Positions 10,399 through 40,000 of a stretch of 40,000 nucleotides of DNA are shown one piece after another (positions within the stretch are counted from its first letter, which is position 1; every line of letters starts with the position of its first letter). Source of the stretch: Photobacterium sagamiensis (GTDB lineage Bacteria > Pseudomonadota > Gammaproteobacteria > Enterobacterales > Vibrionaceae); contig NZ_JAKJSP010000021.1 in assembly GCF_050337085.1 (NCBI RefSeq), forward strand, positions 112,923-152,922. The letters run 5' to 3'. The notes under the pieces are model-generated. The model had not been told where the DNA came from. It did not search any database and was given only the letters and a program-made list of their open reading frames with translations. Made by a program: the position numbers and the translations under genes.

Positions 10399-12578
10399 TG
10401 ACACAGCATGAATCCTCAAACGAACAAGTTTCAGCATTATCGTTAGCTTCCGCATTTTCGATCTCTTACAGTGAAAATGGTGTTGCCTGGCTCAAGATTG
10501 ATGTGCCGGACGAGAAGATGAACACCTTACAGTCAGCGTTTGCAGATCAAGTCTCTGACGTGCTGGCTGAGCTGAAAACCAAAAAAGACATCAAAGGCAT
10601 GGTGGTGTATTCCGGCAAGCCGGATAACTTTATCGCCGGTGCCGATATTCGCATGCTTGATGCCTGCACGACGGCTGAAGAGGCCCAGCAACTCGCAACG
10701 AAAGGGCAGGAGCTGTTCGGACAGTTAGAATCACTGCCGTTCCATGTGGTTGCGGCAATTCATGGTCCGTGTCTGGGTGGGGGACTTGAACTGGCACTGG
10801 CCTGTCATAGCCGAGTCTGTAGTGATGATGACAAGACCCGATTAGGCCTGCCTGAAGTACAGCTGGGTTTACTGCCCGGTTCAGGGGGAACCCAACGTTT
10901 GCCTCGCTTGATTGGAGTGGCCAATGCGCTGGATATGATCCTGACCGGTAAGCAGCTTCGTGCAAAAAAAGCGAAGAAGCTTGGCGTGGCTGATGAAGTC
11001 GTACCGCATAGCATTTTGCTAGAGGTCGCCGAGAAGCAAGCTCTGACCGAGAAGCCAAAGCGTAAACATTCGTTTCAGGACTGGGCGATGGGGGGCAATC
11101 CGTTAGGCCGCTCTGTTGTTTTTGATCAGGCTGCGAAAAAGACCCATGAGAAAACCCGTGGCAATTATCCTGCTGCTGACGCTATTCTCGAAGTTATCAA
11201 ATATGGCTTACAGCATGGTGTAATAAAAGGGCTGCAACAAGAAGCCAAACGTTTTGGTGAGCTGGTAATGACGCCTGAATCGGCGGCATTACGTAGTCTT
11301 TTCTTTGCCACGACAGCGATGAAAAAAGAGACGGGTTCAGATGCTCAACCTGCAAAAATCAGCAAAGTTGGGGTGTTGGGCGGTGGCCTGATGGGCGGTG
11401 GGATCAGCCATGTCACTGCAACCAAGGCCGGTTATCCGGTACGAATTAAAGATATTGCCAACGATGGTATTCAGAATGCACTGGCCTATAATTTCAAGTT
11501 ACTGGATAAAAAGTGCAAACGTCGAATTATCAGCAAGTCAGAACTGCAAAGCCAGATGATGCAAATTACCGGTGGAACCAGTTTTAAAGGTTTTGCTAAT
11601 GTTGATGTTGTTGTTGAAGCGGTATTTGAAGATCTGAATCTGAAGCATCAAATGGTGCTAGATGTTGAGCAAAAGACTTCGCCAACAACGATCTTTGCGA
11701 CCAATACGTCGTCATTACCTATCCACCAGATTGCCGCGGCGGCAGAGCGTCCTGAAAATGTGGTCGGCTTACATTACTTCAGCCCGGTAGAAAAAATGCC
11801 GTTGGTAGAGGTGATCCCGCATCAGGGCACTGAAACGGGAGAGGCGACATCTGCAGAAACCATCGCAACCGTGGTGGCGCTGGCGAAAAAACAAGGCAAA
11901 ACACCGATTGTTGTCGCCGATAAAGCGGGCTTCTACGTTAACCGTATTCTTGCGCCTTATATGAATGAAGCGGCATCTGTTTTATTGAGTGGCGAGCCGA
12001 TTGAACATATTGATAGTGCGTTGCTTGACTTTGGCTTCCCGGTCGGTCCCATCACCTTGTTAGATGAAGTCGGGGTGGACATTGGCGCTAAGATCAGCCC
12101 GATCCTGCTTGCTGAACTTGGCGAGCGTTTTAAAGCACCGGATGTGTTTGACTTATTGCTCAATGATGGCCGGAAAGGGCGTAAGAGCGGTAAAGGTTTC
12201 TATCTTTACAATGCGAAGCAGAGCAATGCCAAGAAGAAAGAAGTCGATAAATCCGTTTATAAACTGCTTTCTCTGGAACCGCAGCAAAAGGCGGCTGGGA
12301 TAGACATTGCACTGCGCTGTACGCTGATGATGCTCAATGAAGCGGCACGTTGCCTTGATGAGGGCGTCATCCTATCACCTCGCGACGGTGACATCGGTGC
12401 CATCTTCGGGATTGGCTTCCCGCCTTTTCTCGGCGGCCCGTTCCGCTATATGGATAAACTCGGCGCTAAACGTGTCGTTGAGCTGCTTACGGAGCACGTT
12501 GACAAATATGGCGAGCGCTTTACGCCTTGTGAAAGGCTGGTAGCAATGGCCAACGAAGAACAGTCTTTTTATGGCTAA
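10398..12578 (+). CDS. fadJ: Fatty-acid oxidation complex alpha subunit FadJ (enoyl-CoA hydratase / 3-hydroxyacyl-CoA dehydrogenase)
   Basis: N-terminal crotonase-fold region and a central NAD-binding segment ([11 protein letters not shown]). Start overlaps the fadI stop (TAATG). Confidence 0.92.
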
Positions 12579-12673: not shown

Positions 12674-15439
12674 TTACCTGGCTTGTTGCTGAAACTCGGT
12701 TATCGACTCAATTGGCTGGCCGATATCTAATGGTTCAAGGTTAGCATGCGCTTGGCCCTGACAGTGCATAACCAGACGGTTGGATGTTCGGGGTTTAACG
12801 ATATCGACAATAAAACGCACCATATCAGCACGGTTCAGCGCGGTTAGCTCTTTAACCACTCTTGTTCGCTGGTTAAATTCATTATCTTTATTGCCAATGC
12901 TTACCCAATAGCGTTGAGCACGGGTGCGTAAATTGGTATCCGGCTCCGAAATTTGTGCAATCAGCCCCTGCTTGCTGGCTTGCCATTGCGCTTCATTGAG
13001 CTCCAATAACACCAAAGCAAAGGCATTGGCGAAATCATCAATGGCCTCAGACAAATGCTGCGGCCCGGCGACCGGCGACTGAATATATAAGATCAATCCA
13101 GGGTGGCGGTTTAACGGCAGGTTTGCCGTGCCGACCATATAGCCCAATTGTTGCTTGGTTCGCAATTCATGGAAAAAGGTCGTCGACATCAGGTGGTTGG
13201 CCAGGGTGTAAATGGCAATTTTTCGCGGGGTGGTTTCTCGCGACTGATAGTACATCAAAATCGCAGAATCAGCATGGTTGCAGCTGATTTCATGCGTTCT
13301 GGTGCCTGACTGTGCCAGCTGAACCAGCGGACGCTGCGATTCACCGTAAAGTTGATCGGTCACTCGGAATGCATTTTTCAGTATTTCAGCCAGTGCCAGA
13401 GCATCGTCTTTCAGCCAGTTGCCGTAGATAAAGGTATCAATATGGAGCTCGGCAAACATTGCCTCGACAAAGGCAGGGAGTTCATCGACTTCAATCGACT
13501 CCAGCGCTTCAATCAATACCGGGTAAGGCGGATTATTGGGTTGCAGTAGCCCGGTCAGCTCATTAAAAAGCTGAGAAATTGGTTTATCTTCTGCGGCATT
13601 ACGCCAGTTTCGCAGCATCTGAGCTTTAATATTATCAAATCGCTCCTGATTAAACCTGCGGCTGGCAAAGCGATCGAGAATTAATTTCAACAACAGGGGC
13701 TGTTTTTCACTGAAGCCTGATAGCTGCAGGGTGACACCGCCCTGATGGGCATACAGGTTATACGACATTCCTGCAATTTCTGCCGGATAAGCTTTTTCGT
13801 TGATAGCCTCAAGCAGCATTTCTACACATAAACGGGTTTTCACTATGTTACGTGGAGAGTTGACGGCATGAGGGCTGTCAATCGCGACATAGGCGACCCC
13901 TTTGGGTACCCTGAAATCATGCTCTTGCTTATACCATAAACGGAAACCAGGCAGATCCTGGATCAGCTGTGGTGGCAGTTCAGATCCAGGTGCCAGATCA
14001 TGGGGATCTAATTGATCGCAAATGTAGGGGTTTTCTTCTGGCAGCAATAACTCAGGATCCAGTTTGACCTGCTGCCATTGAGTTAACTGCTCTGCAGTAA
14101 ACGGCGCCACAGAATATGGGGTGTGGTACCACTGCGCGATCTTATCGTAATGTTGCCCTTGCGCGACGAGCACAAGGCGCATGTTATCGGGGCGTAAATA
14201 CCCCAATAGCTTACGCAGTAGCGGTTCATCGTAGCTCGTCATCATATAATCGCCGTAGATGACATCTTCCGGAGCATAGTGGAGCAGGTTCATCACCAGA
14301 TAGCTGACCGTATCAAGCGGTCGGCTTTTCTCCTGATAGCGGAAAGCCAGTTCTAACACCGATTGTTTTTCTTTATAGCGCCATTCTTCCAGGCCTTGCT
14401 GCTCGATCAGGGCGATATACTGGAAAACCGACGTCACAATGGCATCGACGTCATCCAGTCCTTTGGGGGTTAAATTGAGGCTGACAGTATATTCGCGGAA
14501 GTTACTGCCATTAACGCCTCCGCCTGCCGCTAGTGTATTGATAAGCCCCCGGCTTTTAAGCAATGACATCAAGCTGCCCGGCCCTTCATTGCCTAATAAA
14601 TGCGCCAGGTACGAGAGCGGTTTTTGCTGATAAAACTCATCAACGGAAGGCATCGAAAACGACAGCGTCAGTTTGCGCACTTCTTTAATGGGTTCAATCT
14701 GAATAAATTGAGCGCTTTCTTTTTCGGTCACCAGAGGGGCCGCGATGTCAGGTTTAGGCTCGCCTGTATTGGGAATGTGACTGAAGATGGTCTGGGCATA
14801 GTTTTCTAATTGGTCGAGCGATTGTGGTCCTAGCAGTACCAGGCCCATTGAATTGGCCGAGTAGTGGGTATGGTAAAAGTCCAGCAACTCTTCCCTGACA
14901 GAAACATTGTTTCTGTCATCTAATGTGGTTAAGTCCCCCACCGAAAACTTGGTAAAGGGGTGGGCTGGATTAATGGTCTCTTTGTGCACCTGGTAAAGAC
15001 GGCGAACATCATCTTTTAACTTTAGTTTGTATTCTGAATCAACGGCTTGTCGTTCTTTATCGACAGCTTCCTCATTAAATAACGGTGCGGTAAAAAACTG
15101 GCCGAAACGGTCTAACCCTTCCTCAAAAGTATGCGGACTCACTTCAAAGAAGAAGGTGGTGTTTTCTGTGCCCGTCCAGGCATTATTACTTCCGCCGCTG
15201 TGGTTAATGAAAGTCTGGAATTCACCGATCTTCGGATGTTTTTTTGTGCCAAGAAACAGCATATGCTCAAGAAAATGGGCCATACCTTGCCTGTCAGCAG
15301 GGTCATCAAAATGTCCGACTTTGACAGAAAGTGCTGCAGCAGAACGAGGCGCATCGATGTCATGCACCAGAAGTACCTTGAGCTCATTATCTAAGGTCAA
15401 ATAGCGGTACTGCTTGTGATCGTTTGGACTAATGTGCAC
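12674..15439 (-). CDS. M16A (pitrilysin/insulinase-family) zinc metalloprotease
   Basis: Inverted zinc motif HFLEH plus a downstream Glu region. 921 aa with an overall architecture like protease III. The N-terminus has no obvious signal peptide. Confidence 0.85.
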   Translation of the reverse strand: MHISPNDHKQYRYLTLDNELKVLLVHDIDAPRSAAALSVKVGHFDDPADRQGMAHFLEHMLFLGTKKHPKIGEFQTFINHSGGSNNAWTGTENTTFFFEVSPHTFEEGLDRFGQFFTAPLFNEEAVDKERQAVDSEYKLKLKDDVRRLYQVHKETINPAHPFTKFSVGDLTTLDDRNNVSVREELLDFYHTHYSANSMGLVLLGPQSLDQLENYAQTIFSHIPNTGEPKPDIAAPLVTEKESAQFIQIEPIKEVRKLTLSFSMPSVDEFYQQKPLSYLAHLLGNEGPGSLMSLLKSRGLINTLAAGGGVNGSNFREYTVSLNLTPKGLDDVDAIVTSVFQYIALIEQQGLEEWRYKEKQSVLELAFRYQEKSRPLDTVSYLVMNLLHYAPEDVIYGDYMMTSYDEPLLRKLLGYLRPDNMRLVLVAQGQHYDKIAQWYHTPYSVAPFTAEQLTQWQQVKLDPELLLPEENPYICDQLDPHDLAPGSELPPQLIQDLPGFRLWYKQEHDFRVPKGVAYVAIDSPHAVNSPRNIVKTRLCVEMLLEAINEKAYPAEIAGMSYNLYAHQGGVTLQLSGFSEKQPLLLKLILDRFASRRFNQERFDNIKAQMLRNWRNAAEDKPISQLFNELTGLLQPNNPPYPVLIEALESIEVDELPAFVEAMFAELHIDTFIYGNWLKDDALALAEILKNAFRVTDQLYGESQRPLVQLAQSGTRTHEISCNHADSAILMYYQSRETTPRKIAIYTLANHLMSTTFFHELRTKQQLGYMVGTANLPLNRHPGLILYIQSPVAGPQHLSEAIDDFANAFALVLLELNEAQWQASKQGLIAQISEPDTNLRTRAQRYWVSIGNKDNEFNQRTRVVKELTALNRADMVRFIVDIVKPRTSNRLVMHCQGQAHANLEPLDIGQPIESITEFQQQAR

Positions 15440-27953: not shown

Positions 27954-28069
27954 GGAGGCCCCCATTGGTCCTCCCGCAACACTAACCTGTGAACTCGGCC
28001 AGGCCCGGAAGGGAGCAACCGCAGCGGGTGACGTGTGTGCCGGGATGTGGCTGGTGGGGGCTTCCACCC
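27954..28069 (+). ncRNA. ffs: 4.5S RNA / signal recognition particle RNA
   Basis: Near-collinear with E. coli 4.5S RNA as I recall it: ...CCUCCCGCAAC...GGCCAGGCCCGGAAGGGAGCAACC...GUGUGCCGGGAUGUGGCUGG.... The terminal helix pairs GGAGGCCCCCA with UGGGGGCUUCC. It sits right after ybaZ, as in E. coli. Confidence 0.9.
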
Positions 28070-28080
28070 ATCTGCTGTTT
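28035..28080. repeat. att direct repeat, copy 1 (3' 35 nt of ffs plus 11 nt downstream)
   Basis: 46/46 identity with 34753-34798: gtgtgccgggatgtggctggtgggggcttccacccatctgctgttt. Confidence 0.9.
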
Positions 28081-28929: not shown

Positions 28930-30042
28930 ATGAAGTTGCGTTATTTTGCATACACCGTAAGACAACAAGATACACAACAAAAGATCTTGTATAACCTGAA
29001 ATTAGGCTTTGATGCTTTCTGTGAATACGATAACAAGAGTCTTAAAGGTGATTTCAAGAAAGGTGATGAAAAGTTATACCTTATCAAAGTAACCACCCAT
29101 CAAAACTTGTTCTATTTTGTTAGAACGAGTGATGACAGCTTTCTAAAACGTATTGATTTACAGAACATCACAATCGGTGAACTTCAAGATAAATTGAATG
29201 TGCATGAAAAAGTGGTTCATACTTCATACGTCTACATTTGTCCTGAAAGAGAAATTATTGGTTTTGCTAATGGTACGGGTTGTCCTAGACCTGATTCGCT
29301 CCAAGATTACATTAATCTTCTATTTGAGAAAGTTGGTTTAGACAATTTCAAAGTTAAACTAGAAGCCTTGAGTGAAAGTGCTACTAAAGAAGAGCTTATG
29401 AAAATGGATGTCGTTAGTAGTATGTTCATTGATACATCAGCAGATAGAACCCTTGGTAGATTGGTTTCTGGTTGGTTAACTGGTTCAGATGATGAGGATT
29501 TCAAGGGTAAAATTACTATCACGATCAAGCCAGAATCTAATAACATGAAAGATACATTCACAAAGATTCTGAACCGACATTCACTAGAACAGAATGATAG
29601 TGAAATTCTTCAGATTGGTGCTAAAGCTAAACACAATGAGCTTCACGGCCAGCTTGTTGATTACTGGTTAGATCAAAGCAGTAAACTTGCAGACCCTCTA
29701 AACCCTAGAGCAAAGCGTATGAACTTACATGAGCAGATTGAGGATAAAGTTGATAATAATACAAGACTGAAATCTGTATTCAAAAGTCACATTGACAACA
29801 TTCCTAACCTGAATGTGATGAAATCACATCCACAACTTGATGCTTATAAACATGTAGCCACGTATAAGCAACTTCTAAGTGCTATTCAAGATGAAGACAA
29901 ACAAGATGAAAGGGGCGCTAAGGAAATAGTAGCAGCAGCCCTTGGTCAATTAAAAAAGAAGCAAGCTAGAAGTTTATTAGATCGAGCAGACAACGACGAT
30001 AATGTTGCTGGCTTAGATACTAAACAACAAGCAGATCAATGA
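28930..30042 (+). CDS. RexA-like protein (abortive-infection sensor component) with a ~90-aa charged C-terminal extension
   Basis: Collinear motif matches to lambda RexA as I recall it: KLYLIKV..LFYFVRTSDDSFLKRI vs NYLYIHK..FLFTKTNDKSLVQKI; IIGFANGTGCPRPDSLQDY vs TIGFARTVFGPTTSDLTDF; ITITIKPE vs LDIVIKPK; KLADPLN vs HLSAPLN. Translationally coupled (ATGA) to a RexB-like TM protein. Confidence 0.65.
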   Translation: MKLRYFAYTVRQQDTQQKILYNLKLGFDAFCEYDNKSLKGDFKKGDEKLYLIKVTTHQNLFYFVRTSDDSFLKRIDLQNITIGELQDKLNVHEKVVHTSYVYICPEREIIGFANGTGCPRPDSLQDYINLLFEKVGLDNFKVKLEALSESATKEELMKMDVVSSMFIDTSADRTLGRLVSGWLTGSDDEDFKGKITITIKPESNNMKDTFTKILNRHSLEQNDSEILQIGAKAKHNELHGQLVDYWLDQSSKLADPLNPRAKRMNLHEQIEDKVDNNTRLKSVFKSHIDNIPNLNVMKSHPQLDAYKHVATYKQLLSAIQDEDKQDERGAKEIVAAALGQLKKKQARSLLDRADNDDNVAGLDTKQQADQ

Positions 30043-30500
30043 AAAAAACAGAGATAAGGAAGTTAAAGAGATTGATCATCTTCTCACCCATCTTTGGTGT
30101 GGTGATAGGCTTTCTGTACCTGATTCTCAAGCACTTTTCAGGTTGGTCTATAGGCTTCCTTAAAACCGAAACATTAGCGACTGTAGTTGCTGGTTTCAGC
30201 TTTACAATGCTTGGTTTCTTAGCTGCTATTGCTGCATTTATTTTCAGTCTTCAAAAGTACAGGTTTTTTAAACGCTGGATAGAAGATGGCAATGCTGAGG
30301 TGTTTTTTACCTTGTTCAAAACGTCCATAGTGTGCCTGTTTATAACGTTCGGCTTTAGCTTGTTTGTATTCACATCACAAGCCGCTGAATGGGCTTTTAG
30401 ATTCATGATGATGTCAGTCACAAATAACATTTTTCAGATGGCTATCATTTCATTTGTCATCATTGATAAGCTATCAATAGCAAAGCGTGAAGATGGTTAA
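30039..30500 (+). CDS. RexB-like small polytopic membrane protein
   Basis: 153 aa with ~4 TM helices. The size, topology and segment LATVVAGFSFTMLGFLAAIAAFIFSLQKYR resemble lambda RexB (LGATLSSYAGTMIAILIAALTFLIGSRTRR). 4-nt overlap with the upstream gene. Confidence 0.6.
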   Translation: MKKTEIRKLKRLIIFSPIFGVVIGFLYLILKHFSGWSIGFLKTETLATVVAGFSFTMLGFLAAIAAFIFSLQKYRFFKRWIEDGNAEVFFTLFKTSIVCLFITFGFSLFVFTSQAAEWAFRFMMMSVTNNIFQMAIISFVIIDKLSIAKREDG

Positions 30501-30532: not shown

Positions 30533-31105
30533 TTATTTATTCCAGTGGCGTTTCACTGTCATAACTGAAACGCCCAGTTTCTCTGCCACCAGCGATTGAG
30601 TTAATCCCTCAGATTTTAGCTTTAATACTTTCTCTGTAGTCTTAACTGCTTTTGGTCTACCTAGTGTTTTTCCTTCTGACTTTGCACGCTCTAATCCCTC
30701 CTTGGTGCGCTCACGAATGCGATTACGCTCAAACTCAGCAAATGACATAAACACTTGCAACATCAATTTACCTTCACTGCTACTAAGGTTTGATACTGGC
30801 AAATCAAGACAAATTACCTCAATACCTTTTTTTATTAGCATGCTGACTGTTTGCTGGACATCAATGTTGTCACGTCCTAATCGGTCAAGTTTTAACACAA
30901 CCAAGGTATCACCAGTTTCCAGTTTGTGTTCAACCATCGTTTTAAACTCGTTACGTGCCATAGCCATTACAGAGCCTGATACAGTTTCAGTAATTACACG
31001 ACTATCAAGAACATCATAACCAGCGTTACGGATAGCTAGTATTTGGTTGTCTGTATTCTGCTCAATTGTTGATACACGGCAGTAAGCAAAGGTACGTTTA
31101 GTCAT
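30533..31105 (-). CDS. Small serine recombinase (resolvase/invertase family)
   Basis: From the ATG at 31105: MTKRTFAYCRVSTIEQ (catalytic Ser motif), LVVLKLDRLGRD, and a C-terminal HTH (LTQSLVAEKLGVSVMTVKRH). 190 aa. Confidence 0.88.
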   Translation of the reverse strand: MTKRTFAYCRVSTIEQNTDNQILAIRNAGYDVLDSRVITETVSGSVMAMARNEFKTMVEHKLETGDTLVVLKLDRLGRDNIDVQQTVSMLIKKGIEVICLDLPVSNLSSSEGKLMLQVFMSFAEFERNRIRERTKEGLERAKSEGKTLGRPKAVKTTEKVLKLKSEGLTQSLVAEKLGVSVMTVKRHWNK

Positions 31106-31122
31106 GGCGAACTTTCCCGATT

Positions 31123-31217
31123 GGTAACATTTAATGTGGTAACACAATAGCAGAGGTAACATAAAAGATAAACCCTATTTTGTTGTTACCTTTCTGATGG
31201 GGCTATTGTTGGTAACA
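31123..31217. promoter_or_regulatory. GGTAACA repeat array upstream of the recombinase (candidate recombinase binding/res-like or operator sites)
   Basis: GGTAACA at 31123, 31138, 31155 and 31211 (direct), and TGTTACC at 31184 (inverted). Inverted caatagc/gctattg at 31144-31150 / 31202-31208. Confidence 0.4.
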
Positions 31218-31510
31218 TTAAACGGTCGTTTATTAAGACTAAAGTTGCTCTACATGTTTAATACAGAAAAGCTGTCCCAATTAGTATGCTTCTTTTGCTG
31301 CTAGAGTTTAAATTGGCGTTTGTTCATCAGGTATGCGGAAATCCTGAGTATTTGTATAAAGGCAGTATAAGGTCACTTGATAGCGAGATTTCTGAAATTG
31401 AAATAGCAAATCTTTATGAACGTTATCTCTCATTAACAGAGTTTATCTATTGCCTGAATTTTTAGAATACTTTGTAATAGAATTACAATTTTATAAGCAG
31501 CAGTGTTCTT

Positions 31511-33001
31511 ATGGGGCGAGAAATTAATAAACATGGATTATCCCGAACTATTCCTCCAGAAGTAAAAGAAGAAATCCGAAAAGACTCTGGTTATGGTTGT
31601 GTTATGTGCGGCTCTTTATTCACTCACTATGAGCACATTGAACCTGAGTTTAAGGATGCAAAGGTTCATGATGCTAATAAGATGACGTTGCTTTGTGGGG
31701 GATGTCACGATCATGTTACTCAGAAGCGTTTCTCGAAGAAGGCAGTATGGAAAGCTCGGGAGTTACCAAAGACTAAAGAGCGCGGTTTTGTAAATCATTG
31801 GTATTCACCTCCTGACAATGAGCAAAAAATAAAACTAGGTTCATCTGTATTCGATCTAACTAGCGTAATTCTGAATGCCTTCGGAAAGCCCTTGATTTGG
31901 TTTGAGCCACCAGAGGAAGAGGATGAACCTGTCAGGTTAAATGCAATCTTCTACGATGCTGAATCGAACCCTATTGCTTACATCAATAGAAACCAATTCA
32001 TTGGCTTGGTCGGCTTTCATGACATCTCAGGTAAGGGGAGTTGTATTACAATACGCCCTAAGAAGAGACACATTGCTTTAGAATTACACGCGGTTGGAGA
32101 CGAACCAATACTAATAACCCGCCTGGTAATGGATTATCTTGGTACAAACTTTGAAGTGGAAAGGTCTGGTAAATTGTCCATAAAGCAAGGCGATTCAGTA
32201 CTCAAGCTCGACAACACCCAAATGAAAGGTTGTGGAACTGCATTTGTTTTTGGAGGTATCCCAAAGACAAGAAAACTATCTGAATCTGAGGTACTAACCC
32301 CCTTAAGTATTGCTATGGCTATACAACAACGTATTTCGAAAGAGATCAGAGCATACGATGGTGTTGTTGTCGGATGGCTTTTAGGCTCATGGATTGTAGA
32401 TAAGAGCTATGCGATTTCTGCGACTGTAAATTCGACATCAGAAACCTTATTAGTACATGGAATTACAGGGGAATACATAGGTGAATTAGTTCAATTCAAC
32501 AACTCTCTATCTATTATCACCTGTCTGGATGAGTATGAAAGTGGTGAGCCTATCTGGGTGAATTTTTTAGATAGGTCATCTCAAAATGTCAGACTACAAA
32601 AAGGGTTTGATGTTTGCTACCGAATTACAGATGAACGTCCTATTTATCAAGGTACTAGAAATCGTCTTTCGAGAAACACACCACCAGCGACAAGTATTGT
32701 TCCACCTAAACAGTGGAGAAAGACTGATGGCCCTATAACTCAAGGGAATCGAGTTACCATTGATTTTGAGGGGTTCATTGATGGAATACCATTTGAGGGG
32801 GGTAAAGCTGATAATTACAATCTTGTTATTGGTAGTAACAGAATGATTCAAGGTTTTGAGGAGAACTTAGTTGGGCACATGGCTGGTGAATGTTTTGAAA
32901 TTCCGTTAGCGTTTCCCGATAGGTATCATGCTGAACAATTGAAAGGTAAGAACGCAGTGTTTAGCGTATACATCCGTAGTGTTGAGAGTATGGACGTTTA
33001 A
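31511..33001 (+). CDS. HNH-nuclease / unknown central region / trigger-factor-like FKBP (PPIase) domain fusion protein
   Basis: aa 30-69: C-VM-C...YEHIEP...N...C-GG-CH (HNH/zinc-finger pattern). aa 400-496 (nt 32708-32998) are collinear with the E. coli trigger factor PPIase domain (RVTIDFEGFIDGIPFEGGKA...GSNRMIQGFEENLVGHMAGE...FPDRYHAEQLKGKNAVF vs [20 protein letters not shown]...[20 protein letters not shown]...FPEEYHAENLKGKAAKF). Confidence 0.7.
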   Translation: MGREINKHGLSRTIPPEVKEEIRKDSGYGCVMCGSLFTHYEHIEPEFKDAKVHDANKMTLLCGGCHDHVTQKRFSKKAVWKARELPKTKERGFVNHWYSPPDNEQKIKLGSSVFDLTSVILNAFGKPLIWFEPPEEEDEPVRLNAIFYDAESNPIAYINRNQFIGLVGFHDISGKGSCITIRPKKRHIALELHAVGDEPILITRLVMDYLGTNFEVERSGKLSIKQGDSVLKLDNTQMKGCGTAFVFGGIPKTRKLSESEVLTPLSIAMAIQQRISKEIRAYDGVVVGWLLGSWIVDKSYAISATVNSTSETLLVHGITGEYIGELVQFNNSLSIITCLDEYESGEPIWVNFLDRSSQNVRLQKGFDVCYRITDERPIYQGTRNRLSRNTPPATSIVPPKQWRKTDGPITQGNRVTIDFEGFIDGIPFEGGKADNYNLVIGSNRMIQGFEENLVGHMAGECFEIPLAFPDRYHAEQLKGKNAVFSVYIRSVESMDV

Positions 33002-33591: not shown

Positions 33592-34635
33592 TTATAATCT
33601 GTTAACAAGGTCAAGTAGTTTATCTGGCGTTATACTCTTTCCGTATCGATCATAGGTAATGCTGCCGTTAGAGTGGCCTAGCAGGGCTGCTGTGTATTGA
33701 AGCGGAATACCATCTACTTTGAGTTTAGTTGCGACATAGTGTCTTATAGAGTGAAACTCAGGTAAGTCGTTATTAGATCTCCAGCGATTGAACCATTTCC
33801 CGAAATAGTGGGCACAATTGCCTTTGTAGGGCTTGAATTCGGGGAAGACTCTAGCATTGGTTGGCTTACTTTTTGCGTACACTACAAAGTATTTTAGTTC
33901 TTTATGAACAGGTATCAAGCGCTTGGTTGACTCATTTTTCACTGATTGCCAATCATAAGAGTCATCGACACTAATGCACCAGATACCATTAACTTTTACA
34001 ACATCACTTTCGCTCAGTTGCACAATCTCATTACAACGCATCCCTGTATAAAGACCTATCTTGATTATCCATTGTTTGTGAAGGTCTAGTGTAGCAAGAT
34101 TTCTAACCAGTTTTTTTACTTGATCTGTGGTGTATGCTTTCCGCTGATCTTTGGCTGATTGCATAACTTTTTCTTTTAACCCATTAAAAGGATTTGTTAT
34201 GTGGATGTCATGATGTTTGTCCATCCAGTAAAAAAAAGCTCCAATCTTCGAAGCATGTTTGTTCTTTGTGGGGACTGATACGTTTAACGTTTTTAGGAAC
34301 TTGAATGCTTGCTGCTTGCTTAATGGATCGCTTGTGTATGCCAAGTACCGAGTGATAAATCTCTCAATTGTAAGTATTTCACGCTCTGCGACTTTTAAAG
34401 ACTTAAAAGATAGGTAAGCCTTCAATTCTGATTGAAAATCAATCACTTCAGGTTCATTTTCTGGTTCTGTTCTCTTAGATACTGCGCATGAAAGTAATGC
34501 ATACACTTTTTGTTGTGCTAGTCGTTTATCCCTTGTTCGAAGTGACCTTTTTACTTCTTTTCTTTTACCGTTTGATTGCGTTGTAATTTTACGGAAGTAC
34601 CAAATACCTTGTTTGGATAACCACAGATTAGACAT
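33592..34635 (-). CDS. int: Tyrosine recombinase/integrase of island 1
   Basis: Start preferred at the ATG at 34635 (MSNLWLSKQGIWYFRK). Catalytic pattern TGMRCNEI ... HSIRHYVAT ... LLGHS ... ITYDRYGK. Its 5' end lies ~120 bp from the att copy. Confidence 0.9.
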   Translation of the reverse strand: MSNLWLSKQGIWYFRKITTQSNGKRKEVKRSLRTRDKRLAQQKVYALLSCAVSKRTEPENEPEVIDFQSELKAYLSFKSLKVAEREILTIERFITRYLAYTSDPLSKQQAFKFLKTLNVSVPTKNKHASKIGAFFYWMDKHHDIHITNPFNGLKEKVMQSAKDQRKAYTTDQVKKLVRNLATLDLHKQWIIKIGLYTGMRCNEIVQLSESDVVKVNGIWCISVDDSYDWQSVKNESTKRLIPVHKELKYFVVYAKSKPTNARVFPEFKPYKGNCAHYFGKWFNRWRSNNDLPEFHSIRHYVATKLKVDGIPLQYTAALLGHSNGSITYDRYGKSITPDKLLDLVNRL

Positions 34636-34752
34636 GACGTATGGCCTTATTTCAAAAATAGAAAAATGGCTATAAGTAGTCATCCACGTTGTATGTATTA
34701 GTTTGTGTTGGTTGCCAGTAACGTATTGATTTTATTCCGCAAAATTTGCGTG

Positions 34753-34798
34753 GTGTGCCGGGATGTGGCTGGTGGGGGCTTCCACCCATCTGCTGTTT
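34753..34798. repeat. att direct repeat, copy 2 (junction between island 1 and island 2)
   Basis: Identical to 28035-28080. Flanked on both sides by outward-reading integrase genes. Confidence 0.9.
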
Positions 34799-34870
34799 AG
34801 TGTTTTCAATCAATACCTTACCTAAAATTGTCTGCTCAGGTGATCCACTTTATGTGTATTACTAGAGGCA

Positions 34871-36004
34871 ATGATGACGACAAATCTATGGTTATCTCCG
34901 CACGGTATCTGGTACTTTCGTAAAGTATATCTCCTGCCTTCGGGTAAACGTAAAGAAACCAGAAAAAGCCTGAGAACGCGGTGTAAGTGCACTGCCAAAG
35001 AGCAGGTGATCAAGCTGCTGGCTTGCGAGCAATCATCACGCAGCCCTTCTCCATCTACATTCCCCAGCCAATGCAACGCTCCCTCGTCACCTGTCACCAT
35101 TACGCCTGACTACTTGTCTGAACACCTTGAGCACTACATTGAGATTAAGGCTCGGCGCTGCTGTGAACGCGAGCTACTGACGATCAGGCGGTTTATTACT
35201 CGGTACATTGCGTATCTGAGGCAGAACGACACCTTTGATGCGATCAGCTCATCAACAGCGGCTAGTTTTCTTGATTCTTTGACTGTCGCCATTCCCACCA
35301 AGAACAAGCATGCGAGCAAAATAGGGGCTTATCTGCATTGGCTGGATAAGCGTGCTGATATCGAGGTGAAAAATCCGTTCTCATTGTTGAAAGAGAAGCA
35401 CACGGTTGCTGTCCAGGAGCAGAGGAAAGCATACAGCCTCGCCCAAGCCCAGCGGTTAATTCAGCACTGCTCAGGTTTTGATGAGTGGAAACGGTGGGTG
35501 GTTTTGCTGGGGCGCTACACAGGGATGCGATGCAACGAAATTTGTCAGCTTCACCGTGACGATATTGTTCAGGTTGAAGGCGTCTGGTGCGTCAGTATCA
35601 ACCAAGTCAAAGACTATCAAATTTTAAAGACAGCCAGCAGCAAAAGGATCATTCCACTCCCTAAACACCTCCCTGACCAGTTCGATCTTGAGGCATTCCT
35701 GGCGTTTGCTATACGCAGGGAAGGGCGGCTGTTTCCTGAAGCAACCATCTACAAGGGTAATTGCGCCCATTACTTTGGCAAGTGGTTTAACCGCTGGCGC
35801 AAGAAGCACAGCCTGCCTGAATTTCATTCCCTGCGTCATTTAGTGGCAACAGAACTGAAACAAGCTGGTATTCCTGAGCAATTTTCTGCCGCAATTCTGG
35901 GACACAGCCATCGAGGAATTACCTATAACCGGTATGGCAAAGCTGTCTCTCCCTTGAGGTTAGTTTTGCCTATGAGGTTCATTTCTTCGGTCAAATCGAA
36001 CTAA
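34871..36004 (+). CDS. int: Tyrosine recombinase/integrase of island 2
   Basis: Homologous to the island 1 integrase at both ends (NLWLSPHGIWYFRK; YKGNCAHYFGKWFNRWR; HSLRHLVAT; LGHS; ITYNRYGK). Confidence 0.9.
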   Translation: MMTTNLWLSPHGIWYFRKVYLLPSGKRKETRKSLRTRCKCTAKEQVIKLLACEQSSRSPSPSTFPSQCNAPSSPVTITPDYLSEHLEHYIEIKARRCCERELLTIRRFITRYIAYLRQNDTFDAISSSTAASFLDSLTVAIPTKNKHASKIGAYLHWLDKRADIEVKNPFSLLKEKHTVAVQEQRKAYSLAQAQRLIQHCSGFDEWKRWVVLLGRYTGMRCNEICQLHRDDIVQVEGVWCVSINQVKDYQILKTASSKRIIPLPKHLPDQFDLEAFLAFAIRREGRLFPEATIYKGNCAHYFGKWFNRWRKKHSLPEFHSLRHLVATELKQAGIPEQFSAAILGHSHRGITYNRYGKAVSPLRLVLPMRFISSVKSN

Positions 36005-36372
36005 TCGTTATTTTTTCGTATTTAAGATGAGTATTACATCACATTTTTTAGAATAAAAAGTGAGGTAAACAAATTGTTAAAACTACATAAATTACTGATA
36101 AGTAACACTTATAATGTTCGAAAGCATGCTGTTGCATCCTTTGTGGTCCGTATGGCTAATGTGTTGATTATTTAGACTAAAAATCTTAAAAAACAATTGT
36201 TGCGCGACTGTTGCGGGTATGTGTATTTTGTTAATTTCGTTTTTATAAGTAACACTTAAGATGTTGATTTATAAGGAAAAACCAAAATGTTGCATTGTCG
36301 TATTTTAATGTGCATTTTATATTGATGCAGCAAGGTGACTGCATAATATTTTTTCTATTAAAAGGAAACATT

Positions 36373-36900
36373 ATGACTCGTGAAAATGTTACCCGCTCGA
36401 CTATCTGGCGCTGGATTCGTGATGGTGCGATGCCACAACAGCACACTATTGGTGGGGAGACTGTTGGGTGTTCTGAAGATGTCATTGAGAAGTGGAGTGC
36501 AGAGCGTCAAGTCAAAAAAACAGGTGTAACGTCTTTTCGCTCTGGTGAGGCATGGCACTTACTCGAACTGTTCTTAACTGGACGTCGTTTAACTCGTGGT
36601 GATATCCAAATGGAATGTGGACACCAGGATGCAAATCAGTTGTTGCATGTTCTCCGCAATGAAATGCTTGTTCCTGTTACTTGCCAAAAGGGGCGTGGAG
36701 GGCTGCCTTCTGTCTGGTATATGAAAAAGGAAGATATCGACATGTACCAGAATCACCGCACCAAGCAGAAAAAATGTCAAAAACGTAAGCTGGCACAGCG
36801 TGATGAAGCAAATTCAATGAAGAAACTTCATCAATGGGTGGAAGAAATCGGGGAAGATGAGTTTATTCAGCTTATTAAAGAGGTAGGCAAAAAAAAGTAG
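36373..36900 (+). CDS. AlpA-like HTH regulator/excisionase with an extended C-terminal domain
   Basis: The ATG at 36373 follows an AAAGGAAA RBS. The N-terminus has STIWRWIRDGAMPQ, the typical AlpA/phage Xis-type HTH. A ~125-aa C-terminal part of unknown function follows. Confidence 0.65.
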   Translation: MTRENVTRSTIWRWIRDGAMPQQHTIGGETVGCSEDVIEKWSAERQVKKTGVTSFRSGEAWHLLELFLTGRRLTRGDIQMECGHQDANQLLHVLRNEMLVPVTCQKGRGGLPSVWYMKKEDIDMYQNHRTKQKKCQKRKLAQRDEANSMKKLHQWVEEIGEDEFIQLIKEVGKKK

Positions 36901-37000
36901 CTACCGAAGTAAAACGGTAGCTATTAGTTAATGTGTATTTAAAGGGTGCTCGTACTCGCAAAAATCCGGGCGCCCTTATTTAAAAGGTAACATTATAACG

Positions 37001-39358
37001 ATGAAATTCAAAATTATCGAAGTCGCTGTAGACTTCCTACAAAATCATTTTTCTGTTATTCCACTGGAAAAGAACGGAAAAAAACCAGCAGTTGCATCTT
37101 GGAAGCAATACCGCGAAAAACCAGCCTCACCAGATCTTTTTAAAGACCACCAAGGCAACCTTGGGCTGATTACGGGGCGCAATGGTGACCTGTGCATCCT
37201 AGTCATCGACATTGACCGAACAGGCGAAGGCATCGAACAGGCAAAGCAGGAGTTCGTGGAAAAATATGGTCCTGTGGATTGGGAGTCAGCCTGTTGTCAG
37301 GGAACCCCCTCAGGTGGTCGTCATTACATCTTCCTGGTTCCTGACGGCATCGAAATCTCTAACCGAGTCGCGATCATCGACGGTGTCGATATCCGTGGTG
37401 AGGGCGGCTATATCGTCATTGATCCATCAGAAGCGCCCAGCAAGCTTACTGGTAAGTTAGAAGCTTATCACTGGTTAAACGATATCCTATTACATGAAAC
37501 GGCTGAGATTAGCGTAGAAGTTGCTACGGCAATTGCCCAATCCGGCAAGGAGAAGCCTAAAGAGAGCAGCAGTCAGGAATCAGTACCTCAGCCGACCTAC
37601 AGCACTGTAAACACCCCTTATGGCGCAAAGGCATTAGACGGGTGCATTGGTGAAGTATTAGCGGCACCAGAGGGTACACGTAACGACACGCTGAATACCC
37701 AGGCTTTTAATGTTGGGCGGCTCATTGGTGGGATGCTTGTCACCCCGAATGATGGTTATTACGGGCTAGTTAATGCAGCAATTAATATTGGTTTGAGTGA
37801 ACAGGAAGCGAAGGCAACCATCGGTAGTGGGATTGAAGCGGGAGTGATGGAACCTCGTGTACTTGATGACCATCCCGACACCGATGAAGTTCCGAATGCG
37901 AACTCTCAAGAGTGGGGTGAGCCGCAAGCATTTACGCCAGAACTAGAGCCTGTTTTACCGTTGTGTAAGGGGATGATCCCTGACGTTTTTTACACCCATG
38001 CGAAAATCGAAGCTCGAAAGATGGACAATACATCTATCGATTATGTTGTCATGGCGATAATTGCCTGTGCTAGCGCTGTCATAGGCACCACTCGTATGAT
38101 TCGCCCCAAAAAGCATGACTTCGGTTGGCTTATTGCCCCTGTTTTATGGTGTATTGCGGTGGGTTCACCATCGACAAAAAAGACACCAGCATTAAAAGTG
38201 GGCACCAAGCTTCTCTCCTTGGCTCAAGGCGTATTTGATGAGGAGTATGCTACAGCAGTTAACGAGGTCGAGGCTGATAAGGCTGTTAATGACTTAATTA
38301 TTCAGAACAAAGAAAAAGATGCAAAAAAAGCCGTCCAAAACGGTGATACTGAAAAAGCTAAAGCATTAATGAACGAGATGCGTGAACTGAAAATAGAGTC
38401 ACTAAACCACCGGATGGTTTTAGTGAACGATGCGACCATAGAAGCTATCGCTATCCGTGCTGAATCGAACCCTGAAGGCTGCTTAGTATTTCGTGATGAA
38501 CTGTCAGGCTTACTTGCCATGATCGACCGAGCAGACAATGCCAATGATCGTGCCTTTTATCTAGAAGGTTTTGGCGGGGATAGTTCATACACTCAAGAAC
38601 GTGTCGGTCGCCCCAACGTCTACATTAAACGCTTAGGCATTTGGCTCTTAGGCGGGATCCAGCCGGATAAGCTGATTCCTTACCTAAGATCCCGTAAGCA
38701 GGGCGAAGATAATGACGGCTTTATCGAACGCATGCAGTATATGGTATTCCCTGACCATCAGGGTTCGGAATATATCGATGAGCCTGCAGACACAATCCCC
38801 AACATGATGGCTGGAGTCCGTTTTATATTCCTAGCAGATCTGAAGTTTGATGAGCATGGAAACCCTGTTGTTTGCACCTTTACCGATGATGCCCAAGTCA
38901 TATGGGACAAATGGGCAAAAGGCATGCATCAGCGTCAAAATGCGGCTTCTCCCGAATGGCAGGCGATCCTTGGTAAGTATCCGGCATTGTGCGCGAAGTT
39001 CGCCCTTGTCTTCCACTTGTGCGAGTCACCCGACACCAAAGTTACCCAAGATGCTCTAGAGATGGCAATACGGTTTATGGGCTATATCGAGAGCCATGCC
39101 CGTCGTATCCATTCTTACTGGCTGCATGAAGATCAGGTAAGTTCAGCCAAGCAGTTGCTTGATAAGCTTGACACCCTCAGCCAGCCATTTTCAAAGAAAT
39201 CGGTTGCTGACAAGAACTGGAAGGGTCTTGGTACTCAGGAACGTGATAAGGCTCTAAAGCAGCTAGAGGAGCATGGCTACATCCGACGCGTTGAGACACC
39301 GAATCCTGCGGGGCGTCCATCCGTATTCTTCTACAAACACCCTGATTACTGCCAGTAA
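37001..39358 (+). CDS. Replication protein: N-terminal bifunctional primase-polymerase (Prim-Pol) domain plus DUF3987/helicase-like C-terminal domain
   Basis: Prim-Pol motifs LVIDIDR, SGGRHYIF and VDIRGEGGYIVIDPS. Linker motif TRNDTLNTQAFNVGRL. P-loop-like GSPSTKKT in the C-terminal half. Confidence 0.8.
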   Translation: MKFKIIEVAVDFLQNHFSVIPLEKNGKKPAVASWKQYREKPASPDLFKDHQGNLGLITGRNGDLCILVIDIDRTGEGIEQAKQEFVEKYGPVDWESACCQGTPSGGRHYIFLVPDGIEISNRVAIIDGVDIRGEGGYIVIDPSEAPSKLTGKLEAYHWLNDILLHETAEISVEVATAIAQSGKEKPKESSSQESVPQPTYSTVNTPYGAKALDGCIGEVLAAPEGTRNDTLNTQAFNVGRLIGGMLVTPNDGYYGLVNAAINIGLSEQEAKATIGSGIEAGVMEPRVLDDHPDTDEVPNANSQEWGEPQAFTPELEPVLPLCKGMIPDVFYTHAKIEARKMDNTSIDYVVMAIIACASAVIGTTRMIRPKKHDFGWLIAPVLWCIAVGSPSTKKTPALKVGTKLLSLAQGVFDEEYATAVNEVEADKAVNDLIIQNKEKDAKKAVQNGDTEKAKALMNEMRELKIESLNHRMVLVNDATIEAIAIRAESNPEGCLVFRDELSGLLAMIDRADNANDRAFYLEGFGGDSSYTQERVGRPNVYIKRLGIWLLGGIQPDKLIPYLRSRKQGEDNDGFIERMQYMVFPDHQGSEYIDEPADTIPNMMAGVRFIFLADLKFDEHGNPVVCTFTDDAQVIWDKWAKGMHQRQNAASPEWQAILGKYPALCAKFALVFHLCESPDTKVTQDALEMAIRFMGYIESHARRIHSYWLHEDQVSSAKQLLDKLDTLSQPFSKKSVADKNWKGLGTQERDKALKQLEEHGYIRRVETPNPAGRPSVFFYKHPDYCQ

Positions 39359-39388
39359 CCAGCAACCATATCTCGGGGATCTCTGATT

Positions 39389-39450
39389 TGTAGGGTTTCT
39401 CGGGTTTCTGGAGGGGGGGGGGACCCTTAGCAAATACCTCCCCCCACCTT
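39389..39450. repeat. Repeat unit 1: GTAGGGTTT/TCGGGTTT iterons plus G10...C-tract hairpin
   Basis: tgtagggtttctcgggtttctggagggggggggggaccc...cctccccccacc. Begins ~30 bp after the replicase stop. Confidence 0.8.
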
Positions 39451-39544
39451 TACCTATGCGACACTGAAATTTATCTGATTTTCAAACAGCCAAACTTTAT
39501 TGGTTTGGTTCAATATCCACGTAACTGAAAAAGGAAATTAAGTT

Positions 39545-39766
39545 ATGACAATGCCTGACCAACTGGCTGAAAAAGTTATCGTTGCAGATAATCACATTGT
39601 TATTCGCGACGGATATTATGAAATCCCACTAGATGACTGTAACACTCCAGAGAAGCTTATAAGCTGGGTTATATATTTGCTTGAAAAAAAATGGATTAAT
39701 CAATCAATCATTTATCGTTTTGTTAAAACCGCATGCAAGGAGAATAACCTTAAGATCCCTTATTAA
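39545..39766 (+). CDS. Hypothetical 73-aa protein
   Basis: An AAAAGGAAA RBS-like sequence precedes the ATG. Lies between repeat units 1 and 2. No recognisable motif. Confidence 0.45.
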   Translation: MTMPDQLAEKVIVADNHIVIRDGYYEIPLDDCNTPEKLISWVIYLLEKKWINQSIIYRFVKTACKENNLKIPY

Positions 39767-39848
39767 ATTACTTGGGGGGCGGGTTGCTTAATCGCGGCTC
39801 CCCCCTTAACACCATACAAACCCGAGAAATTGCCAGATAAATTGAGTT

Positions 39849-39910
39849 TGTAGGGTTTATAGGGTTTGTGGAGGGGGGGGCTGGACCACAGCAAAATACC
39901 CCTCCCCCCC
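39849..39910. repeat. Repeat unit 2 (same architecture as unit 1)
   Basis: tgtagggtttatagggtttgtggaggggggggctggacc...cccctccccccc. A third unit begins at 39979 (gtagggtttgtagggtg) and is cut by the window end. An inverted iteron tacaaacccgagaa lies at 39815-39828. Confidence 0.8.
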
Positions 39911-40000
39911 TTCACATATGCCCATCCAAGATGTGACCGATTTTTCGAAGCCCGAAACTTTGACAAGTAATGCTAATTCGTAGGGTTTGTAGGGTGATTG

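Follow-up and report, generated by a model that had tools for sequence, protein, structure and literature searches.

An isomerase head domain of trigger-factor type joined to a putative HNH nuclease on a mobile island of Photobacterium sagamiensis: a candidate single-gene defence protein from a large uncharacterised family

We analyzed a 40,000-nucleotide (nt) stretch of Photobacterium sagamiensis DNA (contig NZ_JAKJSP010000021.1, positions 112,923 to 152,922; "the window" refers to this whole stretch) with regard to one open reading frame (ORF), which an earlier note made from the sequence letters had singled out as a candidate undescribed anti-phage gene. The ORF codes for a protein of 496 amino acids (aa), in which a putative HNH nuclease module is followed by two beta domains, a flexible linker and a peptidyl-prolyl cis-trans isomerase (PPIase) domain of the type found in the head of trigger factor (TF). 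The combination is a genuine one and recurs in homologues, its nuclease-bearing core belongs to a large family that is accessory and mobile, and a role in defence is plausible from these comparisons. The gene and its parts are located in the window as follows, with the predicted local distance difference test score given as pLDDT.

31511..33001, + strand: gene coding for the HNH / beta-A / beta-B / TF-PPIase protein, 496 aa, ATG start (ORF list and translation)
31511..31786, + strand: HNH / His-Me-finger module with a CxxC...CxxC zinc site, aa 1-92
31787..32260, + strand: beta-A domain, acidic, all-beta and rich in beta-hairpins, aa 93-250, modelled with pLDDT >90
32261..32635, + strand: beta-B domain, one helix and ~7 strands, beta-flower-like, aa 251-375
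32636..32707, + strand: flexible linker, aa 376-399, pLDDT <50 over aa 383-397
32708..32998, + strand: FKBP/PPIase head domain of trigger-factor type, aa 400-496, corresponding to E. coli TF 149-245

The ORF product is an exact sequence match to WP_428440906.1 of Photobacterium sagamiensis, whose sole public name is "FKBP-type peptidyl-prolyl cis-trans isomerase". This label is misleading. Eighteen full-length homologues with 36-46% identity were found, their hosts being Vibrio harveyi, V. natriegens, V. owensii, V. barjaei and Shewanella aquimarina, together with metagenomes. Because of these 18 full-length homologues the ORF can be regarded as a real gene under selection, and as each of them carries both parts, the fusion of HNH and PPIase that the earlier note had read from a single sequence is genuine.

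The AlphaFold2 model of the protein, calculated from a 90-sequence alignment, has a mean pLDDT of 93.8 and a predicted template modelling score (pTM) of 0.76. It is organized into a helix/zinc-finger module (aa 1-92), an all-beta region (aa 93-375), a disordered stretch (aa 383-397) and a compact, beta-rich domain (aa 400-496). Both the sequence and the length of the linker vary among 19 fusion proteins, and in the window protein it is rich in P, S and T (TPPATSIVPP). The calculated isoelectric point (pI) separates the modules: the HNH module of this protein is basic (pI 9.1), whereas beta-A, beta-B and the FKBP domain are acidic (4.9-5.5), with family mean values of 4.9-6.8 for the non-HNH domains. 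Because of this contrast to the basic HNH module, the beta domains and the FKBP domain appear to be of non-DNA-binding character.

The earlier note had described the N-terminus as a CxxC...H...N...CxxCH pattern. Its cysteine and histidine positions were borne out, since C30, C33, E41, H42, P45, H53, C62, C65 and H66 are identical in all 19 fusion proteins. The asparagine was not: position 56 is N in one of the 19, and H53 is invariant instead. If conservation is calculated across phyla (35 loci, 90 proteins, mean column identity 55%), C30, C33, H42 and C62 are invariant too, and C65 and H66 are found in at least 90% of the members; E41, P45 and H53 are likewise invariant or conserved to at least 90%. 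The strongest conservation in the protein falls on the HNH catalytic residues.

Profile comparisons point in the same direction. The Pfam HNH model is sub-threshold on the window protein (14.9 bits, cutoff 21.4) and exceeds its cutoff in the homologues L015 (25.2 bits), L016 (26.2) and P0186 (25.0), and PHROG HNH families match the N-terminus (phrog_589, expect value (E) 9.6e-8). In the PDB, a profile made from the first 95 residues at 35 loci matches two HNH domains best, that of IscB with E 0.0036 and that of ZRANB3 with E 0.0084; the alignment covers both CxxC pairs, H42 and the "LC..CH" segment. No HNH domain is found among the best 50 Foldseek PDB matches of the full-length model, all of which are FKBP/TF. 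The catalytic His in its setting (E41-H42, P45) and the final metal-ligand His (H66), by which the HNH superfamily is recognized, are both present. The Asn found in IscB and ZRANB3 aligns to position 57, where the residue here is K, H, C or S, with the invariant H53 nearby. Asn-less variants exist within the HNH superfamily, so that the missing Asn is compatible with membership. Judged by its conserved residues, the family represents a variant form of HNH in which the canonical Asn is missing. With the HNH / His-Me finger nucleases that have a CCCC zinc site (PF01844; IscB, Cas9, ZRANB3, phage GVE2 and the SAVED-HNH protein Cap5) the window protein shares the CxxC...(D/E)H..P...LC..CH layout. 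It differs from them by a highly conserved NKHGLxRxIP segment N-terminal of the zinc site, and by the module being N-terminal and always followed by beta-A, which has no PDB counterpart.

The C-terminal approximately 97 aa had been assigned to trigger factor rather than to a generic FKBP, and the evidence for this assignment is extensive. Residues 401-493 match NCBIfam TIGR00115 (tig) with E 7.9e-31 over profile positions 140-233 of 410, and residues 401-494 align without gaps to the PPIase domain of E. coli TF (1l1p, E 8.9e-27). The sequence search of the PDB with the head domain returned TF chains only, and the top Foldseek matches are likewise TF chains (Vibrio, E. coli) with a root mean square deviation (rmsd) of 0.8-1.1 A, for example 0.8 A across 95 columns for 1t11. 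The generic FKBP models are much weaker, with 48.6 bits (E 1e-12) for Pfam FKBP_C, and SlyD and FKBP12 are weak structural matches only. Among the matches of the homologue search, the HNH fusions are the sole non-TF proteins with a TF-type head.

The fused segment is TF 149-245, i.e. the whole head domain, and the protein stops where the head domain ends. The ungapped alignment allows a direct transfer of numbering (TF residue = query residue minus 251) to F168, F177, F185, I195, F198, Y221, H222 and F233, which we take to be the aromatic pocket residues of TF. The equivalents of F168, F198, Y221 and F233 are present in all 19 fusion proteins and those of F177 and I195 in 18; the F185 equivalent is F in 16 of the 19 and Y in the window protein, and H222 counts among the retained residues. 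The F198A variant of TF has been used as a PPIase-dead mutant. By this residue comparison the hydrophobic peptide pocket of the head domain is predicted to be intact.

While the head domain is common to the window protein and trigger factor (1l1p, 1w26, 1t11), the remainder differs. The N-terminal ribosome-binding domain and the C-terminal arms of TF are missing, the flanking TF domains PF05697 and PF05698 have no Pfam matches in the window protein, and with 107.3 bits against a cutoff of 180.2 for TIGR00115 the whole protein scores below trigger factor proper. The head domain here stands at the C-terminus, behind a nuclease and a disordered linker, and the gene is an accessory one on a mobile island, unlike the housekeeping gene tig. 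The identity of the head domain is 48-50% to E. coli or Vibrio TF and 60% to the best TF found. The earlier view of a captured piece of tig thus holds with regard to its origin from the TF head, but because the identity to E. coli and Vibrio TF is only about 50% the capture must be old rather than recent. The possibility that the ORF is a remnant of an interrupted tig gene was considered and rejected, since exactly one domain is matched and the ORF stops at the domain boundary; it is also ruled out by the 18 homologues with the fusion and the identity of ~50% to TF.

The middle part of approximately 330 aa was previously said to contain no recognisable motif. When a separate model of aa 89-383 (pLDDT 93.4, pTM 0.89) was compared by Foldseek, neither the PDB (best E 0.014, template modelling score ~0.1) nor the BFVD viral structures (best E 0.036) gave a significant match, and the beta region is only vaguely like the beta-hairpin repeat proteins (MORN, choline-binding, BamB). 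Significant Pfam matches are missing as well. The statement therefore stands for significant matches, but has to be qualified by a sub-threshold one: Pfam Bflower PF21784 reaches 16.6 bits on aa 278-310 (cutoff 25). The same model is above its cutoff in the homologue L008 (26.9 bits), and precomputed PF21784/PF21785 assignments exist for several homologues. The modelled secondary structure of beta-B would be compatible with a beta-flower (clan CL0395: PF21784/PF21785), a fold whose 4-fold type (PF21784) has been described (PMC10584680). Beta-B is present solely in the family branches of ~370 and ~500 aa.

To define the family, an exhaustive profile search was run over 1.84 billion cluster representatives (clusters at 50% identity). 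At E <= 1e-30 it yielded 1,234 representatives, and with the limit relaxed to E <= 1e-10 the number rose to 2,459. The protein is accordingly no isolated novelty, as might have been thought from the earlier note, and belongs to a family of at least 1,234 representatives with HNH plus beta-A as its core. The representatives span 221-609 aa, and most of them are 245-330 aa long and cover only profile positions ~1-250. Because of this, HNH together with beta-A is regarded as the conserved unit. The unit corresponds to phrog_6544, a family of unknown function, which matches aa 4-249 (E 1.3e-47) and spans an entire 261-aa homologue from a Klebsiella prophage (E 4.6e-100); phrog_6544 (~248 aa, phage/prophage) is without the beta-flower-like and PPIase domains of the window protein. 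Genome matches come from Gammaproteobacteria, Flavobacteriaceae, Verrucomicrobiota, Nitrospiraceae, Myxococcota and one archaeon. A DNA search of E. coli genomes with the Klebsiella short form gave no match.

The PPIase domain is carried by 6 of the best 150 of the 1,234 representatives, namely those of 487-508 aa. Judged by this distribution, the PPIase-bearing form is a Vibrionaceae/Shewanella variant that is rare within its large, uncharacterised family. The C-terminal extensions differ by lineage and comprise none at all, SEC-C, TPR, CxxCxxCC, an unassigned one, a beta-flower-like one, and a beta-flower-like one plus the TF head. The SEC-C, TPR or CxxCxxCC tails are found on the distant members L015, L016, L017, L012, P0135 and P0147, and tails that are protein-binding or chaperone-related thus recur on one nuclease core; in SecA, the SEC-C motif mediates binding to SecB and to the ribosome. 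When a neighbour-joining tree is calculated from the shared region, the fused proteins (~490-547 aa) do not separate from the unfused ones (~370 aa) but are interleaved with them, and tblastn found no FKBP remnant downstream of the unfused genes. A separate downstream FKBP gene at the short-form loci was rejected for the same reason. From the interleaving and the missing remnants it follows that the head domain was lost or gained repeatedly and is dispensable for the core function. As most relatives, close ones included, are without it, the PPIase domain would be an accessory and not the core sensor.

These distributions bear on the simplest explanation, that the protein is a plain cytoplasmic PPIase or chaperone as annotated, whose Cys/His pattern is merely a structural zinc finger. 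The NCBI name and the conserved pocket residues are in its favor. Yet just 97 of the 496 residues belong to the domain, which is missing from most of the family, conservation is strongest at the HNH catalytic residues, and the distribution is patchy and tied to mobile elements, so that we consider this explanation highly improbable.

The setting of the gene in the window supports its mobile nature. It lies within an island that had been described as AT-rich and integrase-bounded, and that is now delimited by two perfect copies of a 46-nt direct repeat, 6718 nt apart, giving an island of 6.7 kb. The island is integrated at ffs, the gene for the RNA of the signal recognition particle (SRP), with whose 3' end the left copy overlaps; it thereby documents ffs as a hotspot of integration with defence cargo. 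No tRNA or tmRNA genes were found in the window. The GC content is 0.33-0.40 inside the island and ~0.47 outside. The features of the island, apart from the gene itself, are:

27963-28059: ffs, SRP 4.5S RNA (Rfam RF00169, 73.5 bits)
28035..28080, no strand: left attachment (att) copy of the 46-nt direct repeat, 100% identity, overlapping the ffs 3' end
28930-30042, + strand: RexA-like protein, 370 aa (PADLOC RexA E 3.3e-31; Pfam RexA E 2.6e-34)
30039-30500, + strand: RexB-like protein, 153 aa (PADLOC RexB E 8.1e-10)
30533-31162, - strand: serine recombinase / DNA invertase (NCBIfam Mpi-family E 6e-23; phrog_125 E 7.7e-57)
31461..31489, + strand: candidate sigma-70-like promoter TTTAGA-17-TACAAT from a consensus scan, in a region with 9 such sites against 8.8 in shuffled sequence
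33592-34683, - strand: tyrosine integrase of island 1 (NCBIfam tyrosine recombinase models)
34753..34798, no strand: right att copy of the 46-nt repeat, end of island 1 and start of a tandem island

The neighbors named in the earlier note, a RexAB-like pair and a divergent serine recombinase, were both found again. The stop of the RexA-like gene overlaps the start of the RexB-like gene, and the RexA-like product is publicly named "hypothetical protein". The HNH gene and the recombinase gene are separated by an intergenic region of 348 nt. Short inverted copies of GGTAACA/TGTTACC lie near the start of the invertase (31150-31225), and a direct repeat, TTGGTAACATT(T/A)AA, is located at 31121-31134 and 31209-31222 by the same start; both may be recombinase binding sites, and no convincing invertible segment was found. 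An inversion of the HNH gene driven by the invertase was rejected, as the sole flanking inverted repeat (I10) is 14 nt long with one mismatch; one of its arms is within the integrase ORF, and I10 is probably a chance repeat.

A second, tandem element begins right after the right att copy (34799-40000) and continues past the end of the window. Its recognized genes are:

34871-36004: tyrosine integrase, 49% identical to that of island 1 and at the opposite end of the element
36295-36900: AlpA-like regulator
37001-39358: PrimPol-DUF3987 replicase

By this gene content the second element resembles a phage satellite of the P4 type or the type of phage-inducible chromosomal islands. A motif GTAGGGTTT..GGGTTT..GGAGGGGGGGG with a C-rich inverted partner occurs at 39387-39420 and 39847-39880, downstream of the PrimPol gene, and a further GTAGGGTTTGTAGGGT is found at the window end (39980-40000). 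The GTAGGGTTT/GGAGGGGGGGG/GTAGGGTTTGTAGGGT repeats may represent iterons or an origin of this satellite-like element.

We then compared the surroundings of the relatives. Among 105 flanking proteins from 36 homologue loci no neighbour family recurs. Because of this the gene is taken to work alone, and the earlier statement that it stands alone, made for the window, extends to its relatives. Ten FKBP-bearing loci were examined (the window, L001, L002, L005, L006, L040, L041, L043, L049 and L050). At five of them (window, L049, L001, L041, L006) a known or candidate defence gene according to PADLOC lies within approximately three genes, a raw count that is uncorrected for background. The individual surroundings are:

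Window locus: adjoins RexAB
L049, 5301-6926: cyclase of a cyclic-oligonucleotide-based anti-phage signalling system (CBASS; PADLOC E 4e-88, cut by the contig end) and 4TM effector (E 3e-68)
L001 (V. harveyi): adjoins a RelA/SpoT-type candidate, PDC-S33, and a CTX-like filamentous prophage
L041: adjoins an HNH/Mrr candidate, PDC-M36A
L006: adjoins a DolB/PDC-M37B-like ATPase
L043: final gene of an integrase island, by ssb
L040 (V. owensii): exact 28-nt dif1 site AGTGCGCATTATGTATATTATGTTAAAT at 12076-12103, 0.6 kb downstream
L002 (V. natriegens): exact 28-nt dif1 site AGTGCGCATTATGTATATTATGTTAAAT at 14392-14419, 2.9 kb downstream
L050 (IMG/VR contig): CTX-like filamentous prophage adjoins the gene

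The CBASS pair of L049 is ~1 kb away from the FKBP-bearing homologue, with a DUF3653 gene in between. One subclade appears to travel with dif-integrated elements; no further, degenerate dif site was found to flank the gene in L040 or L002 at <=8 mismatches. The short forms are found in comparable places: Klebsiella prophages carry one at the end of a P2/HP1-like element and another in the nin region of a lambdoid one, and a third is part of a Shewanella integrase island with KAP NTPase and HipAB. A further short form of 392 aa (P0033/L044) is located on a 1.8-kb V. cholerae contig (AAXOOB010000045.1, 1-1800) beside a DUF3709 gene, which we presume to be a superintegron cassette; this suggests that the family also circulates as integron cassettes. 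On the virulence plasmid pPHDD1 of Photobacterium damselae there is a copy (L046 6001-7179; NC_014653.1 145418-146596) that matches in two pieces, has no annotated coding sequence and adjoins a RelE/ParE toxin-antitoxin pair; it is probably a pseudogene. Distant members adjoin Type I HsdR, a LmuB-like ATPase and a GajB-like helicase, and 3 of 10 large neighbouring proteins of such members are of defence type. In summary, the family is accessory, mobile and often near defence genes, and with half of the FKBP-bearing loci abutting known or candidate defence genes the homologues are not housekeeping genes.

This mobility can also be read in another way, as that of a selfish nuclease which serves its element by excluding competitors, degrading host or rival DNA or aiding propagation, any benefit to the cell being incidental. 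The core family has a PHROG of its own, phrog_6544. Members occur on 22 IMG/VR viral contigs, in the lambdoid nin region and at the P2/HP1-like prophage end, several FKBP-bearing copies lie by filamentous prophages or dif, and the window copy rides on an integrase island. The accessory sites of prophages and satellites also house prophage defence genes, so that context does not distinguish between the two readings. Further observations speak against an element-serving nuclease: only one of 50,697 phage records contains a detectable relative of the nuclease part, there is no insertion in introns, inteins or conserved phage genes, and some copies stand by themselves in the chromosome, away from any element. 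We consider it unlikely, though the strongest competitor among the alternatives. A homing endonuclease was considered as well. Located in islands and variable regions, the genes stand free and interrupt no intron, intein or conserved target gene, and with one match to the nuclease part in 50,697 phage records the homologues are not mainly phage homing endonucleases.

A restriction-type nuclease, either Type IV or solitary and Type II-like, would read DNA or modified DNA with its beta domains and cut with its HNH module, the PPIase domain being a passenger. McrA-like Type IV enzymes join HNH to a separate recognition domain, and the layout of the window protein resembles theirs by analogy. No methyltransferase is consistently adjacent, as for Type IV enzymes, one homologue adjoins an HNH/Mrr_cat protein, and distant homologues lie near Type I restriction-modification genes and methyltransferases. 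The properties of the beta domains speak against this role, as they are acidic (pI 4.9-5.5 here, family means 5.7-6.8) and match no DNA-recognition fold in the PDB. The lineage-specific tails (TPR, SEC-C, FKBP) are of the protein-interaction type and are no DNA readers, and the restriction-enzyme models of PADLOC do not match. A restriction-type function therefore seems to us somewhat less likely again than an element-serving one.

With regard to known defence systems, the protein falls under no named one. The earlier note knew of no described defence family with this architecture, and this agrees with PADLOC-DB v2 and the searchable literature, neither of which gave a match: in the full-text search, no paper was found in which HNH or phage defence is linked to FKBP, trigger factor or SEC-C in such an architecture, and the DefensePredictor paper contains nothing relevant to an HNH-FKBP architecture. 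The closest parallels are single-protein sensor-effectors such as the Cap5-type HNH proteins and Rugutis, which likewise consist of one polypeptide with a conserved effector and variable recognition modules and are borne on islands. Compared to these, the window protein has no sequence or structural homology beyond the HNH motif and no SAVED/CARF nucleotide-sensing domain. Rugutis is a validated lactococcal single-gene anti-phage protein with a SEC-C motif (PMC11381338), and this motif is also found in distant relatives of the window protein. Cernunnos, a validated beta-flower cassette protein of V. cholerae, may be compared with beta-B by domain type; the preprint lists it with systems of no homology to known defence domains and mentions no nuclease (bioRxiv 10.1101/2024.07.02.601686). 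The two proteins are likened by domain type alone, and the PF21784 match of the window protein is sub-threshold. Both come from Vibrionaceae mobile gene pools.

The explanation we favor, and to which we would give about an even chance on the basis of the sequence comparisons, is that of a stand-alone, single-polypeptide conflict nuclease carried as mobile-element cargo and most likely acting in anti-phage or anti-mobile-element defence. An auto-inhibited single-protein DNase is suggested because an intact HNH site, a constant core with variable tails, an intact pocket, a linker and solitary mobile genes are found together. The HNH domain would be the effector and cut DNA, while the acidic beta domains may restrain it, sense a trigger, or both; together with the TF head of this branch, they could also relay a protein cue from the invader. 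The PPIase head on its flexible linker could represent an added peptide-binding module that tunes activation, either by capturing an abundant invader protein at a stretch that is unfolded or contains proline, or as a prolyl switch that acts on the proline-rich linker of the protein itself. Once activated, the nuclease would cleave invader DNA and possibly host DNA, and the infection would be stopped.

Several points weigh against a role in defence and have to be kept in mind. PADLOC-DB v2.0.0 contains no matching model; only aa 22-83 give a weak match, with E 0.0012, to the zinc-finger region of Csf1. The canonical HNH Asn is not conserved. The PPIase domain is dispensable for the family, and its role may be minor, e.g. 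folding help in cis. The defence-neighbour counts indicate an enrichment rather than prove it, several close homologues are lone genes among housekeeping genes, and many neighbors of distant members are ordinary metabolic genes. An anti-phage role and the sensing of a phage protein are what we infer from sequence, and the gene is presented as a candidate only.

The idea of a one-gene sensor-effector put forward in the earlier note is thus retained in part. The fusion, the solitary mobile gene and the defence-gene neighbors are in agreement with it, but the PPIase domain is probably an accessory rather than the core sensor, and that the head domain specifically should be the sensor appears doubtful from its distribution. 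We mention, as a speculation with a small chance of being correct, that the TF head was exapted as an immune pattern-recognition module which binds unfolded or proline-containing stretches of a phage protein made in abundance, e.g. a capsid, scaffold or tail protein, and switches on the auto-inhibited HNH domain. Alternatively, the exapted head could serve as a decoy that draws a phage factor directed against the host trigger factor, and DNA cleavage would be switched on in this case, too.

What is new here is a chaperone-derived module, unprecedented on a single-gene nuclease candidate, and its large, uncharacterised parent family would merit testing by itself. If the exaptation is true, a housekeeping chaperone domain would for the first time be recognized as the sensor in a bacterial immune nuclease that consists of one protein, and the TPR, SEC-C and beta-flower tails would represent different protein sensors mounted on one effector chassis. 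If the gene is a defence gene, it would stand for a large unnamed family of single-gene HNH nucleases with interchangeable protein-binding tails in many phyla, and its Vibrionaceae/Shewanella branch would show how a piece of a core chaperone was recruited into immunity.

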